A stretch of DNA of 64,000 bases from a virus (taxonomy: Duplodnaviria > Heunggongvirae > Uroviricota > Caudoviricetes): IMG/VR virus record IMGVR_UViG_2721755676_000001. One strand, given 5' to 3'. The notes beneath the pieces are model-generated. The model did no database searches and was not told where the DNA came from. It worked only from the letters and a program-made list of their open reading frames with translations. A program made the translations under genes and the position numbers. Shown here piece after piece: positions 42,055 through 49,268 of the stretch. Every line of letters begins with the position of its first letter. Position 1 is the stretch's first letter.

Positions 42055-42126
42055 GATGGTGTAGCTCAGCGGTAGAGCAGTTGGCTGTTAACCAACTGGT
42101 CGGTGGTTCGAATCCACCCACCATCG
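42055..42126 (+). tRNA. tRNA-Asn (anticodon GTT)
   Basis: Cloverleaf folded by hand: acceptor GATGGTG/CACCATC, anticodon loop CTGTTAA, T-arm GGTGG-TTCGAAT-CCACC, discriminator G then CCA. Confidence 0.85.
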
Positions 42127-42134
42127 CCAATTTA

Positions 42135-42218
42135 GGGGAGTTAGTCCGTAGGGGCAGCGGAGTAGACTGTAAATCTACTGTCATGGCGACTCGGGTGGTT
42201 CGACTCCATCACTCCCCA
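42135..42218 (+). tRNA. tRNA-Tyr (anticodon GTA), long variable arm
   Basis: Acceptor GGGGAGT/ACTCCCC, anticodon stem GTAGA/TCTAC with loop CTGTAAA, long variable arm, TTCGACT T-loop, CCA encoded. Confidence 0.8.
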
Positions 42219-42225
42219 CCAAATT

Positions 42226-42298
42226 GCCGGTTTAGCTCAGTTGGTAGAGCGCCTGCCTTGTAAGCAGGATGTCAGCGGTTCGAGTCCGCTAACCGGCA
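42226..42298 (+). tRNA. tRNA-Thr (anticodon TGT)
   Basis: Acceptor GCCGGTT/AACCGGC, D-arm GCTC-AGTTGGTA-GAGC, anticodon loop CTTGTAA, T-arm AGCGG-TTCGAGT-CCGCT, CCA encoded. Confidence 0.85.
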
Positions 42299-42525
42299 CC
42301 AATACAACGATAAGATCATTACGGTTAATCGTCGTTCATGTGCACAATGACTGGTCGAAAGGTAGTGATCTTACCGTTGTGGTGGATTCGCAGACTGATG
42401 CGATAGCTTTCTTGGATGTTAGGGAAATGCGGCCGCAAATCTTCCCTTTCGCGAGCGGTGATCGTCCGTAGTCCTAATTGGCTGCACCGTATGCCGGAGA
42501 TTCAGTACCGGCCACCACAACGGCC

Positions 42526-42609
42526 GGAGAGTAGGGAGCATGGTGCTCAAGCGGTCTTGAAAACCGTCCCATTGCGCAAGCGATGATGGTTCGATTCCAT
42601 TACTCTCCG
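42526..42609 (+). tRNA. tRNA-Ser (anticodon TGA), long variable arm
   Basis: Acceptor GGAGAGT/ACTCTCC, anticodon loop CTTGAAA, long variable arm, T-loop TTCGATT, discriminator G, CCA encoded. Confidence 0.7.
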
Positions 42610-42789
42610 CCAGACACAGCGTTGAGCGGTTTGGCCTTTTAATCACCCAGATTAAGACTCCGCTAACATAAACCAGACCGCTCAACGCTGTGATAGACAA
42701 TTACGGCAGACGTTCTTAACCATAGCTTGCTAACATCCTAGCAACACTTTTTTCAGCGCAAAATTCAAAGGGGCTTCGGCCCCTTTTTG

Positions 42790-43686
42790 TTAATGATTAT
42801 CTAGGTATGCTATTAACTCATTTTTAATGATAAGTGAATATTCTAAAATCTCACCTAGTAAATATTCTGCTTTTTTAAAATGCCAACCCATATAGCCTAA
42901 TTTTTCTGAAGGTCCTTCTAACAACATTATAATATCGCTGTCTTTCTCTTTGGCAATGTATTGTCTTATTTCTATCTCAAAATTATTTCTTGTCTTCCCA
43001 CTTATTGATGATTCATCCAAAACTTTAGTTATAAACTTTTCCGTGTCGATGAACTTTCCTGCATTATGCACAATTGTATGTCTTAGCAGCTCAATTAAAG
43101 TGATCTCGAAACGATAGTTTTTACCTATCTTGTTATTTATTTCTACGTCTCTAAAATTGGGTAACTTTCTTCTAAATACTTTCAGGATTTTTTTTGGTGC
43201 TTTATTATTTCTTTTTATCGCATTGTAGTAGGTTTCCATGTCTCCATTTTGTTCGATCTGAACATTTTTAAATTCACTAGGTTGCCAAAAATGGTCATGA
43301 ATACTCACTGTATGGGCATATATTTTCTTAATATAGTCTTCAAACAATTCATATGCTTCGGTTATAACCCATTGATACTGTTTATTTTTTAACACTTCAC
43401 ATAACTTTATCTTCTCTGAAAGATCTGTTCTAGTATGCCCAATTCCAAATGTTGAACCTGTATATGGATTTGAGCATGTATGGTTTGCTAACGTTGTCCC
43501 GCATGTTAATGGGAAAGTATTATTAGCATCTAGATTTTGTACGTTTTCAAGTGTATGCTTAAATCGCTTTATGTTGTCTTTCGTTGTAACATTTATATGA
43601 CCTAACAAGTCACAACGTAAAATTATTTCATTTCTTAAATCAGTGAATATTTTTTCGACAAAAGAACCTGATGGGTTTTCAATCAT
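42790..43686 (-). CDS. hypothetical AT-rich protein with HEPN-like R-x4-H motif (candidate abortive-infection/defence protein)
   Basis: 298-aa minus-strand ORF, Lys/Asn/Ile-rich, AGAGG RBS; motif RHTIVH; directly flanks tRNA cluster. Confidence 0.5.
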   Translation of the reverse strand: MIENPSGSFVEKIFTDLRNEIILRCDLLGHINVTTKDNIKRFKHTLENVQNLDANNTFPLTCGTTLANHTCSNPYTGSTFGIGHTRTDLSEKIKLCEVLKNKQYQWVITEAYELFEDYIKKIYAHTVSIHDHFWQPSEFKNVQIEQNGDMETYYNAIKRNNKAPKKILKVFRRKLPNFRDVEINNKIGKNYRFEITLIELLRHTIVHNAGKFIDTEKFITKVLDESSISGKTRNNFEIEIRQYIAKEKDSDIIMLLEGPSEKLGYMGWHFKKAEYLLGEILEYSLIIKNELIAYLDNH

Positions 43687-43861
43687 CTAAACCTCTACGA
43701 AAATCTTACCTATAAGACAGTCCTTAATGTAATCTGTTTTCTCCACTACTTCAAATTACCTCACAATCTATTGATAGGTGACTACCTACTTACATACAAA
43801 GTTGATTTATAGTATAGTCCCTCTGTTGCGTATTAGTATTTTAAAAGGCATCTGTTAAGTT

Positions 43862-44107
43862 ATGACGATCACTATCTACGGACGAGATAACTGCTCATAC
43901 TGCAAACGTGCGGTCGAGCTGGCGAAGCAACTAAAGGGACATGGCTACGGTGATTATAAGTACATCGACATCACCACTGCCGGTATCGATAAGGAAAAAC
44001 TTAGCGAAATTGTTGGAAAACCGGTAGAGACTATCCCCCAGGTGCTGATCGATGGCCAGCCGATTGGCGGATACACAGAGATGGCATCTTTCGTAAGTTT
44101 CTTATAA
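43862..44107 (+). CDS. glutaredoxin (NrdH/Grx-like)
   Basis: 81 aa with CSYC active site near N-terminus and glutaredoxin-like C-terminal GG motif. Confidence 0.8.
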   Translation: MTITIYGRDNCSYCKRAVELAKQLKGHGYGDYKYIDITTAGIDKEKLSEIVGKPVETIPQVLIDGQPIGGYTEMASFVSFL

Positions 44108-44144
44108 GTAAAGGCCACATCTTTGTATATATAGTACATATAAC

Positions 44145-44170
44145 AAAAAAGGCCCATGTGGGCCTTTTTC
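44145..44170. terminator. bidirectional intrinsic terminator (AAAAAA-GGCCC-ATGT-GGGCC-TTTTT)
   Basis: GC stem flanked by A-run and T-run between convergent genes. Confidence 0.65.
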
Positions 44171-44198
44171 ATAACTTCTAGCTAATCACTACAGAGGC

Positions 44199-44335
44199 TT
44201 AAAGACCACTTCACCCTTGCGTTCAGCTTCAGCTTTAGCAGTCATGAATCGTTTGATCATTTCGACTTTGCTAGCATGGATAGTTTTAAAATCAATCTTC
44301 CCTTTGTTTTGGGTAGTGTTGTGTTCGTATCGCAT
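44199..44335 (-). CDS. hypothetical small protein (45 aa; not in ORF track)
   Basis: Minus-strand ORF ATG 44335 to TAA 44199, overlapping the 3' end of the upstream minus-strand gene by 44 nt. Confidence 0.25.
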
Positions 44336-44846
44336 AGGAAGCTCCGTCATTTAAATAAGTTAGGCCACGCTCTTGTGTAAATCTCTTCACATATCTCTTG
44401 TATGTGGCCATCAGTTCTTCGCGTTCTGCCGCAAAGAATAAAATCTGTATGCCTTCATTGTCGGCAACTTTGAGCATTAAGTCAACTAAAGTACCGTAAA
44501 GGTATTGAAGTTCACCTAAAGTAAGATTAAAAGACCCTTCGGGTTTGGCAAATACGTTAATTGGCTCTTCCGCTCCAAGAGCAGCATTCTGGAGCTGTTC
44601 TTGCTGCCTGTCAAGTTGAATCATGTCCACAAAACTAACGACAGATACACACAACCCATAAACATCAGCACCTAACATATTATGCATAGTTTCTGCGGCA
44701 ACAGGATCTAAAGAAGGAGGGCAAAAGACTAAACGGTATCTAGCCTTACGAGCTTCATTGCCAGAGAAAACAAAGTCTATATCTAAATATGACAGATCAC
44801 CCGGCAATGAAGCCAAACCAGGTGTAACCAACTTATGCAAGTGCAT
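44292..44846 (-). CDS. hypothetical protein
   Basis: 184-aa minus-strand ORF divergent from the recombinase gene. Confidence 0.5.
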   Translation of the reverse strand: MHLHKLVTPGLASLPGDLSYLDIDFVFSGNEARKARYRLVFCPPSLDPVAAETMHNMLGADVYGLCVSVVSFVDMIQLDRQQEQLQNAALGAEEPINVFAKPEGSFNLTLGELQYLYGTLVDLMLKVADNEGIQILFFAAEREELMATYKRYVKRFTQERGLTYLNDGASYAIRTQHYPKQRED

Positions 44847-44985
44847 CTGTCTCGAATCCCTCTTTATTAGTATAAGTTGTCTTATTGTACCCTACCAAAC
44901 GTTTATATGCATTGTTATGTATTATTTTGATTTTCAATATTACCTCCTAGAACGAAGGGTAGATTTCAAAAAACGCATCCTTAAT

Positions 44986-45012
44986 GATTCCATACCTACT
45001 ATGTATGGAATC
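44986..45012. repeat. perfect 10-bp inverted repeat GATTCCATAC-N7-GTATGGAATC in recombinase upstream region
   Basis: Read directly. Confidence 0.7.
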
Positions 45013-45113
45013 ATTAGTGAAAATGAGTTACTTTTACTCTTGATCCTATAAGAATCTATGCCTAATATACTGTTTACTTATACAGTGAATCGGCGTAACT
45101 CGGTGATTGTCAT

Positions 45114-47159: not shown

Positions 47160-49268
47160 ATGTCTAAAAAACGTTCCATCAAAGAGGTTCAGGACTTCCG
47201 TGACAGTGTAAAACGAGTAGTCGCTCTCCTTTCAGGTAAAAACATCCCTGTTGCAGAACGAGGGGACGACGCTTATGTACGCTATAACGATGATGGAGAG
47301 CCAATTCTCGTAAACATCCCATCAATCCCGGATAACGCAACACCGGCATTGATGAATGCTGTGCGCGGATTTCTCGATCATGAGGTTGCTCACATTTTGT
47401 TTACCGATATTCGTGTGTCCAACAAAATGAGAGAAAAAGGACGCGTTCCTTCCTGGTCGCTATGGAATGCCTTAGAAGACGTGTTCATCGAGCGAAAAAT
47501 GGGTCAGGTCTTTAACGGAACAAGACGTAATCTGATGGCAACTCAGCGCCTTATAATCGAAAAAGTCTTTAAACCAAAGGCTTCAGAGGCTATTGCTTAT
47601 TGTGGCAAAGATCAGCGCGCGCTTTTTCTAAACTTCTTTCTCTGTCCGGTTGTAAGAGCCTGGGATGGCCAAGCACCGTTCGTAGATTTCATGGATGAAC
47701 ATTGGCCTGTCATTGAGAAACCAATTTCATTATTAAAAGAACATGGTATCGATGTGGCCGTGCGTAACATGTCTTGCACCGAGGATTGTGTAAAGGTGGC
47801 TGCGACCATAGCTAAGATCCTCAAAGACACTGAAAGTGAAAGCAAAGGTAAGGAGTCAGCTCCGGGAAAAACTTCCGATCCTTCAGACGCTGACCAGACG
47901 GATGCCTCTGGAGAAAACAATGAAGACAACGAAGATCATGAGACTCCCTCAGTGTTAGATAATCACAAATCTATCAAATCAGAATCACATAGTAAGTACA
48001 AACATGATAATAACGACAGTGATGATTCAGATAATTCTGAATCATCAGAAACAATATTCGATGATACAGAAAATGATAAAGAGGTATCAGATTCTGATGC
48101 TTCTGATAACGCGGCGTCAGAATCATTAACCGCTGACCACGAAAAAAGAAAAACGACAGAAGACGGCTCTTCAGATATCCCAACTCCGTCAAAAATGAGT
48201 CTGGAAGAGGCTTTAGAGGAGCTGGATAGCATAGAAGATGAAGTCGGAGGCATGACAGAAGATGCTCTATCCGAAACGATTAAAAGCGAGTTAACAGAAA
48301 GCTCGAAAAGCGAATACAGGCCATACAATCGCTCATACGACTTCATCGGCTCGATTGATCAGGCAGAAGCCCATATCAAACGGCTTATTAAAACATTCTC
48401 CGATATTGATTTGGGAGGATATCCAATCAGCCGCTATCGCATCGTTCCTGAAGGCAACCAGCTCTTCGACAAATATATTGAAAAGCATCTTTCGTCAGGT
48501 GTTTCGTCGACGCTGGCAAAAGACCTGGAGCGAGCAATAGCAAGCAGAAACAGAGTTCAGTTTATACCGGGCCAGCGTCGGGGGCGCATTCATGGTTCTA
48601 GTATCTACAGATTAGCAATGAATGATGCTCGCGTGTTTCGTAAAAAAGAAGAATCTAAAGCCGTTAACGCCTGTGTTCAACAAGTGATTGATTTATCAGG
48701 TTCAATGAGTGGTATAACGATTAAACTGGCTCTTGCAAGTGCATATACCATCGCCGATGCCCTTGATCGAATAAATGTTCCCAACATTATCACCGGCTTC
48801 ACTACATTTGGTAGTCATATGGCGGCAGGAGAACTTAAGGCTGTCAAGTATGAGTTCTCTCGCTTTGAATCTTTAATGCTACCTATCATCAAAAATTGGA
48901 ATGAAAAGGTAAATTCTCGCGAAGTTCGCTCACGTATGGGGTGCGTAGGCTACACATTCCCACTTCTTAATAACGTGGATGGTGAAAGCATAGCCAGCCT
49001 TGCATCGTTATTTTCCGGTCGCATGGAGGACAGGAAGATCATGCTTGTTCTGAGTGATGGCGCGCCGTGGGCTGTTGGGAGAGGTTTTGACGCTCATTTG
49101 CGTTCAGTTGCGAAGCAAATTGAAACGCAGACTGATATTGATTTGATGGCAATTGGCATCATGACTGACGCACCGGAGAAATTTTACTCAAATCATGCCC
49201 TGGTAACGAGCGTTGATAGTCTTGGTTCATCTGTAGTTACTGAACTATCTCGTATCATTTTAAAGTGA
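47160..49268 (+). CDS. CobT-like protein with C-terminal von Willebrand A domain
   Basis: MIDAS motif VIDLSGSMSG in C-terminal domain; long acidic Asp/Ser/Glu-rich linker; paired with downstream AAA+ ATPase. Confidence 0.7.
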   Translation: MSKKRSIKEVQDFRDSVKRVVALLSGKNIPVAERGDDAYVRYNDDGEPILVNIPSIPDNATPALMNAVRGFLDHEVAHILFTDIRVSNKMREKGRVPSWSLWNALEDVFIERKMGQVFNGTRRNLMATQRLIIEKVFKPKASEAIAYCGKDQRALFLNFFLCPVVRAWDGQAPFVDFMDEHWPVIEKPISLLKEHGIDVAVRNMSCTEDCVKVAATIAKILKDTESESKGKESAPGKTSDPSDADQTDASGENNEDNEDHETPSVLDNHKSIKSESHSKYKHDNNDSDDSDNSESSETIFDDTENDKEVSDSDASDNAASESLTADHEKRKTTEDGSSDIPTPSKMSLEEALEELDSIEDEVGGMTEDALSETIKSELTESSKSEYRPYNRSYDFIGSIDQAEAHIKRLIKTFSDIDLGGYPISRYRIVPEGNQLFDKYIEKHLSSGVSSTLAKDLERAIASRNRVQFIPGQRRGRIHGSSIYRLAMNDARVFRKKEESKAVNACVQQVIDLSGSMSGITIKLALASAYTIADALDRINVPNIITGFTTFGSHMAAGELKAVKYEFSRFESLMLPIIKNWNEKVNSREVRSRMGCVGYTFPLLNNVDGESIASLASLFSGRMEDRKIMLVLSDGAPWAVGRGFDAHLRSVAKQIETQTDIDLMAIGIMTDAPEKFYSNHALVTSVDSLGSSVVTELSRIILK

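Follow-up and report, generated by a model that had tools for sequence, protein, structure and literature searches.

HEPN-domain proteins acting alone and the locus considered here

HEPN domains are defined by an all-alpha core whose four helices pair into two alpha-hairpins, helices 2 and 3 being frequently separated by an insert, by an R-x4-6-H motif that ends helix 3 and runs into the next loop with a polar residue (N, D or H) after the arginine, and in many cases by an acidic residue conserved in helix 2, often within E-x3-[KR] and near the motif; non-catalytic HEPN domains characteristically lose the R-x4-6-H motif (PMC3710099). Some of these proteins work without any partner, for example HepS from the Gifsy-1 prophage (PDB 9oik), a single HEPN protein held as a latent tetramer until a phage tail-tip protein activates it to cut tRNA anticodon loops (PMC13043305). 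The present analysis deals with a 298-amino-acid (aa) gene at positions 42790–43686, minus strand, of the IMG/VR virus record IMGVR_UViG_2721755676_000001, whose whole analysed stretch of 64,000 nucleotides is called the window hereafter and which belongs to an SSU5/pHCM2-like phage-plasmid. With moderate confidence, its product is read here as a stand-alone HEPN-superfamily ribonuclease of an unnamed family, carried as independently transcribed cargo in a defence slot of SSU5-like E. coli phage-plasmids and, as far as sequence can tell, a credible candidate for single-gene anti-phage activity by abortive infection (Abi).

By analogy, HepS would be the closest working model for this protein, with several differences. 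No detectable similarity links the two sequences, HepS being absent from the matches of a PDB profile search at E ≤ 10, and at 298 aa against 218 aa the protein falls outside the HepS family, for which homology and a stand-alone length below 250 aa are the criteria (PMC13043305). Its predicted model shows an N-terminal helix of 50 residues; a beta-hairpin separates helices 1 and 2, 60 residues are inserted between helices 2 and 3, and a helix/beta insert precedes helix 4. All of these are additional to HepS, and the protein bears a KNKQYQW/EAYE signature of its own. Regarding the HepT/DUF86 toxins of type VII HEPN-MNT systems (PF01934; PDB 7ae2, 5yep and 8xdj), the protein is about twice their size, the Tyr of their RX4HXY motif is absent from the family (position 209 being N, G, R or A), and neither a PF01934 match, nor a profile probability of even 1%, nor an adjacent or conserved MNT antitoxin was found. 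The lactococcal-type single-protein HEPN Abi systems (AbiD/AbiF with Abi_2, AbiJ, AbiU2 and AbiV, as well as AbiA with its C-terminal HEPN domain, PDB 8oz7) differ in architecture and signature motifs, and no Abi model of PADLOC or Pfam convincingly matches the query or any of 115 family members. Esos, a validated single-gene integron-cassette defence protein of Vibrio cholerae with only a HEPN-like domain and a link to growth arrest or cell death, shares with the present family the form of a single-gene cassette in Vibrio integrons, Esos being compared by its description only; since no V. cholerae member was seen among 43 species-representative loci or the named family matches, the two are probably different families. 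Judged from the model, the 298-aa protein would be classed as an unnamed family-level HEPN lineage, distinct in architecture and signature and filling a familiar functional role.

Conserved motif and predicted fold

The coding sequence and the two signatures that support this classification are located as follows.

42790–43686, minus strand: coding sequence of 298 aa with an ATG start, predicted stand-alone HEPN-like protein, member of PHROG 35492
43336–43389, minus strand: codons K100-N-K-Q-Y-Q-W...E110-A-Y-E113...E116-D117, family signature in core helix 2 (89–129)
43057–43092, minus strand: codons E199-x2-R202-H203-T-I-V-H207-x2-G210, putative catalytic R-x4-H at the C-terminal end of core helix 3 (191–208)

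A first-pass annotation of this DNA had pointed to the string RHTIVH (residues 202–207) as a HEPN signature. Taken as a bare pattern, such a match is expected by chance, R-x4-6-H being present in 74% and R-[NDH]-x3-5-H in 19% of composition-preserving shuffles, and a second, non-conserved R-x4-6-H match occurs in the protein at R24–H30. The motif is meaningful only because R202, H203, V206, H207 and G210 are invariant in all 115 sequences of the family alignment, which share about 25–30% identity and in which just four further columns, Y104, Q105, W106 and E113, are invariant as well (nine altogether). The earlier interpretation of a HEPN-like protein and candidate Abi or defence cargo is supported, but from other lines of evidence than the pattern match first put forward. 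Around these columns, E199 is found in 103 of the 115 sequences, and N101, K102, Q103, E110, A111 and Y112 are each at least 90% conserved. As for the acidic residues of helix 2, E113 is accompanied by E110 (108/115) and E116 (100/115); the family does not keep the E-x3-[KR] spacing, E being the usual residue at position 120. Conservation reaches 2.78 bits per column in helix 2 and 3.00 in helix 3, with the lowest value (1.55) in the N-terminal helix 1, and the signatures of the two former helices can be written KNKQYQW-L-x-EAYE-x-FED and E-x2-RH-x-IVH-x2-G, respectively.

With the family alignment as input, AlphaFold2 returned a model with a predicted local distance difference test (pLDDT) of 91.3 and a predicted template modelling score (pTM) of 0.88. 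Following DSSP, the N-terminal half of this model runs through a helix (6–55), a beta-hairpin (64–88), a second helix (89–129) and an insert of short helices (130–190), and the C-terminal half through a helix (191–208), two helices plus a beta-hairpin (215–253) and a last helix (272–297). The predicted core is an all-alpha, up-and-down bundle of four helices forming two alpha-hairpins, with the 60 residues 130–190 inserted between helices 2 and 3. R202-x4-H207 occupies the final one and a half turns of helix 191–208, directly ahead of G210, and the polar residue following the arginine is H203. In the model, fold and motif position together fit the HEPN definition, so that the structure prediction suggested in the first-pass annotation comes out on the side of a HEPN fold, with a null Foldseek search that is weighed further below.

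A rare and patchy family found among defence genes

The protein matches PHROG 35492, which has no annotated function, over its full length (E 1.2e-107, residues 1–298 on profile positions 1–302). Searches of Pfam, NCBIfam and PADLOC gave nothing credible for the query, PADLOC-DB v2.0.0 (5,027 models) returning no family at E ≤ 10, and PDB searches likewise placed it nowhere, in agreement with the earlier remark that it belongs to no named family. Csn2 models of PADLOC were weakly matched by 10 of the 115 members (best E 8.6e-5) and not by the window protein, which probably reflects a compositional effect of Lys/Glu/Ile-rich helices. The family comprises 223 clusters at 90% identity by profile search and 398 representatives at 50% by exhaustive search, nearly all of which have about 290 aa, a single domain and no Pfam domain. 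Its distribution is rare and patchy: a search of 185,579 species representatives yielded 43 loci, in Gamma-, Beta- and Alphaproteobacteria, Campylobacterota, Bacteroidota, Spirochaetota, Nitrospirota and others, and 13 of 2.9 million viral contigs contain a member.

The surroundings of the family members lend support to the suggestion, made from the sequence of the window gene, that this is a candidate defence gene, as they include defence islands, an integron cassette and the hotspot described in the next section. In Burkholderia pseudomallei, the member sits in an integrase-bounded island together with Shedu SduA (3e-152), a CTD10/MC6/DUF2326 system and a HigBA-like pair. The Undibacterium member is found beside ArdA, a type IV restriction-like HNH protein, a relaxase and Kiwa (KwaA/B), that of a metagenomic contig beside a GAP1/DO-GTPase/GASH/GAAD conflict system and an integrase, and that of V. 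crassostreae after a HEC-04/AbiLi-like ATPase. At 30 further loci, the 113 nearest open reading frames (ORFs) match 159 PADLOC models, including MADS, PDC-S15, Lamassu LmuB, PARIS AriA, AbiLi and PD-T7-1, as well as type IIG and type I restriction-modification and a CBASS cyclase. The Vibrio furnissii member makes up a cassette by itself, bounded by two attC repeats, in the superintegron of chromosome 2. The stretch L003:1-16912 of this chromosome is a long array of small same-strand genes separated by attC-type repeats of about 125 nt, TAACAAAGCGTT...CGGCGTTA, and neighbouring cassettes include SHOCT, DJ-1/PfpI, MazG, DUF4238 and acetyltransferase genes.

An all-against-all BLAST of the neighbours at 40 loci detected no partner conserved beyond closely related genomes, which indicates that the protein is stand-alone. 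Homologous ORFs of about 185 aa lie directly upstream of the family member and on the same strand at two loci, L010:9424-9990 (10 bp away) and L035:9134-9685, in a metagenomic contig and in Variovorax fucosicus; they may represent a clade-specific partner or synteny by descent. Besides, a bona fide HepT/DUF86 toxin (PF01934, RNAIIHDY), confirmed against solved HEPN toxins, is encoded at L025:7256-7714 in Oceanospirillum linum, 2.3 kb upstream of a family member and next to a tRNA-Val, with no MNT-like neighbour found by a simple motif scan.

A swappable cargo slot in SSU5-like phage-plasmids

The window region is 100% identical to the E. coli plasmid NZ_CP015915.1, and has the phages Cyrano and CMS-2020a as close relatives; these SSU5/pHCM2-like elements carry DNA ligase, integrase and repressor genes among others. 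The features delimiting the slot are listed below.

42526–42612, plus strand: tRNA-Ser(UGA), last of the backbone tRNA cluster (42055–42612), left neighbour
42767–42786, no strand assigned: palindromic GC-rich hairpin AAAGGGGCTTCGGCCCCTTT between A/T runs, left backbone edge (terminator scan and sequence)
42790–43861, no strand assigned: swappable cargo module of SSU5-like phage-plasmids, from the terminator hairpin to the grxA start codon (blastn breakpoints against L001 and L012–L014)
43687–43861, minus strand: 175-bp upstream region travelling with the gene in the module (sister-plasmid homology restarting only at 43862)
43862–44107, plus strand: GrxA-family glutaredoxin, right backbone neighbour, divergently transcribed (RefSeq annotation of identical plasmids)

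The first-pass annotation had described the gene as differing from its neighbours in composition and placed between a tRNA cluster and a glutaredoxin gene, and had seen in this a cargo insertion point, all of which agrees with the measurements. The G+C content (GC) of the gene is 0.31 and that of its third codon positions (GC3) 0.26, against 0.466 for the window and 0.41–0.51 for the flanks, and it remains about 30% in all alleles of the gene. The protein contains 10.7% I, 9.7% K and 8.4% N, and K, N, I, Y and F together make up 38% of its residues vs. 21–31% in neighbouring proteins. As regards the insertion point, blastn homology with four sister elements (L001, L012–L014) ends at 42787–42789 and restarts exactly at the grxA ATG at 43862, which defines a 1,072-bp module made of the gene and its 175-bp upstream region. 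An AGAGG resembling a ribosome-binding site is found in the latter at 43692–43696, 6 nt ahead of the ATG of the gene, and the hairpin at 42767–42786 is a probable bidirectional terminator closing both the tRNA transcript on the plus strand and the 298-aa gene on the minus strand.

Four different cargos have been seen in this slot across plasmids, i.e. the 298-aa gene and three alternatives. One alternative is a 116-aa gene of PF13876 (N4 Gp49 / Sf6 gp66); this 'Gp49 family protein' was first read as a HigB-like toxin, an identification ruled out by its membership of PF13876, to which no function is assigned. Another is a 406-aa protein without Pfam or PADLOC match, encoded at L013:2349-3569 (NZ_OZ392443.1), and the last, at L014:4840-6899 (NZ_OZ501614.1), combines an AbiGi-family gene (PADLOC 5e-47, Pfam 1.7e-24) and, downstream of it, a 403-aa gene whose product matches neither AbiGii nor any other PADLOC model. 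Both the 406-aa cargo and the AbiGi plus 403-aa cargo are considered as further unannotated defence candidates. The 298-aa family itself is present in 29 of the 213 E. coli genomes with the locus, as two allele groups (at least 93% and about 75% nucleotide identity), and homologs with 38–40% identity occupy the same neighbourhood in SSU5-like plasmids of Klebsiella and Citrobacter. For alleles of 57–97% identity, the ratio of nonsynonymous to synonymous substitution rates (dN/dS) is 0.27–0.38, which denotes a functional though fairly fast-evolving protein. The gene is real and under purifying selection, and it is mobile, swappable cargo.

The four tRNAs beside the gene (Asn, Tyr, Thr and Ser) raised the idea of an anticodon nuclease co-varying with a resistant tRNA-Tyr, which was ruled out by plasmids contradicting it both ways, pECAZ155_2 having the gene without tRNA-Tyr and three plasmids having tRNA-Tyr without the gene. 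Of the 37 loci lying outside the SSU5 backbone, 30 lack any tRNA within 10 kb; at the remaining seven, the nearby tRNAs are chromosomal and unrelated. Adjacency to tRNAs is a property of the SSU5 backbone and has no functional tie to the gene. The array at 42055–42612 is polymorphic in its own right: Asn-Tyr-Thr-Ser in the window and most relatives (loci compared: L001, L059 and L012–L015), Asn-Thr-Ser without Tyr in phage Cyrano and pECAZ155_2, and only Ser plus Asn, or Asn alone, near the gene in Klebsiella and Citrobacter relatives.

Further along the window, a second variable slot extends between grxA and the integrase gene (44108–45113). It is occupied in the window by an ORF of 184 aa (44292–44846, minus strand) without Pfam or PADLOC match and in the sister plasmids L015, L061 and L062 by a 202-aa gene and a YafO-family toxin; it is empty in L012, and a Klebsiella plasmid adds a colicin E1-family immunity gene. 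At 47160–49268, a 702-aa protein contains a long Asp/Ser/Glu-rich low-complexity segment in its middle, and the annotation of its phage Cyrano homolog as a dimethylbenzimidazole phosphoribosyltransferase looks doubtful from the sequence.

Contrary results and rival explanations

Several results weigh against a HEPN ribonuclease carried as an independent defence gene. Foldseek found no significant match of the model in PDB or BFVD. With HepT (PF01934) as the sole HEPN reference family, hhalign between a profile of 47 sequences seeded from the O. linum HepT and the query, used both at full length and with its insert deleted, gave a probability below 1%, no better than reversed-profile controls; the best local alignment sets RH-x-IVH on RN-A-IIH and is not statistically meaningful. 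Neither the query nor any of the 115 members convincingly fits a Pfam HEPN family or a PADLOC model, and sequence and profile searches of PDB returned nothing relevant and no HEPN chain. Because the profile-profile tests were null, HEPN membership rests on predicted fold together with motif position. In addition, no confident promoter was recognised in the module, the promoter scan not exceeding shuffle expectation, and control ORFs more than 7 kb away from the family members match 30 PADLOC models, including Kiwa KwaA and NucC, so that this control is imperfect and the defence enrichment is not cleanly quantified, these far ORFs still carrying defence-model matches. In support of the HEPN reading, the slot elsewhere holds an AbiGi-containing pair and the family lies among defence genes, and three rival explanations are each less well supported.

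The same null Foldseek and HepT-profile comparisons count in favour of a helical protein devoid of ribonuclease activity, be it a non-catalytic HEPN-like domain of the MtlR or nucleotidyltransferase-associated type or an unrelated bundle using its Arg and His for ligand or DNA binding. A weak, recurrent local similarity of the family to the helical region of flavin-dependent halogenases points the same way, as does the KNKQYQW signature of helix 2, the strongest of the family, for which we know of no counterpart in described HEPN families. Such a protein is nonetheless unlikely, as it is the R-x4-6-H motif that non-catalytic HEPN domains typically lose (PMC3710099), whereas the arginine, the polar residue and the histidine are invariant in 115 of 115 sequences here, and the defence-island and mobile-element context fits an effector. 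Alternatively, the gene could encode an addiction toxin of a toxin–antitoxin (TA) system, stabilising the phage-plasmid by post-segregational killing and neutralised by an unrecognised antitoxin such as a small RNA, the product of a tiny ORF or one encoded elsewhere. The 1,072-bp module, however, contains no adjacent partner ORF, credible small ORF or tandem repeats like those of type III antitoxins, no conserved neighbour emerges from the 40 loci, and the V. furnissii homolog stands alone in its cassette between two attC sites; besides, carriage by only 14% of the E. coli genomes with the locus implies that the gene is not part of the maintenance backbone. An addiction function is thus quite unlikely, even though HEPN proteins are common as TA toxins (HepT/MntA), the element is a low-copy plasmid, its sister plasmids carry a YafO-family toxin in the neighbouring slot and a bona fide HepT is found 2.3 kb from the O. 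linum member.

The gene could also work for the phage-plasmid itself, in its lytic programme or in counter-defence, e.g. as a ribonuclease degrading host tRNA or mRNA at a time when phage tRNAs replace the losses. In favour of this, the gene is carried by a phage and has a tRNA cluster as its immediate neighbour, phage tRNAs are able to make good the losses from tRNA cleavage, and the family occurs in the 13 viral contigs mentioned above. This role must be considered very unlikely given that tRNA content does not co-vary with the gene, that tRNAs are missing within 10 kb of 30 of the 37 loci outside the SSU5 backbone, that most E. coli genomes with the locus do without the gene, that the latter is a separate unit transcribed against the flanking phage genes, and that many members reside in chromosomal islands and an integron with no phage genes around.

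Proposed mechanism and significance

Returning to the HEPN ribonuclease acting in defence, we infer by analogy a ribonuclease activity with R202/H207 catalysis, oligomeric latency, a trigger, an RNA target and an abortive-infection outcome. The lysogen would make the protein in a catalytically latent form, probably an oligomer in which paired R-x4-H sites are kept apart or occluded, as in other HEPN enzymes. Infection by a competing phage, through a phage protein or an infection-induced change, would act as the trigger. A composite site formed by R202 and H207, helped by H203 and by E113, Y104 and Q105 of helix 2, could then cleave RNA (tRNA, mRNA or rRNA) independently of metal, leaving a 2',3'-cyclic phosphate end on the product. 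Translation would halt and the infection abort, which would protect the clonal cells bearing the phage-plasmid. Beyond this scheme, it is tentatively proposed, as a possibility deserving some credit, that the family is an unrecognised HEPN clade in which one protein combines sensor and effector: the variable N-terminal 50-residue helix together with the beta-hairpin and inserts may sense a phage component, KNKQYQW/EAYE in helix 2 and RH-x-IVH in helix 3 may cleave a specific RNA, and the whole could behave as a plug-in module swapped among phage-plasmids, integrons and defence islands across phyla.

As stand-alone HEPN Abi proteins (HepS, AbiD/F/J/U2/V and Esos) are already established, the understanding of HEPN defence would be unchanged in principle. 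If the proposed function is true, a family of about 400 clusters without Pfam or PADLOC model would join the single-gene HEPN abortive-infection effectors, and a compact, experimentally tractable Abi system would be native to E. coli/Klebsiella phage-plasmids, which are common in clinical isolates. The SSU5-like phage-plasmids would possess a precisely bounded defence slot, from the terminator hairpin to the grxA start, that could be mined for more systems, and one small effector would be shared among phage-plasmids, integron cassettes and chromosomal islands.
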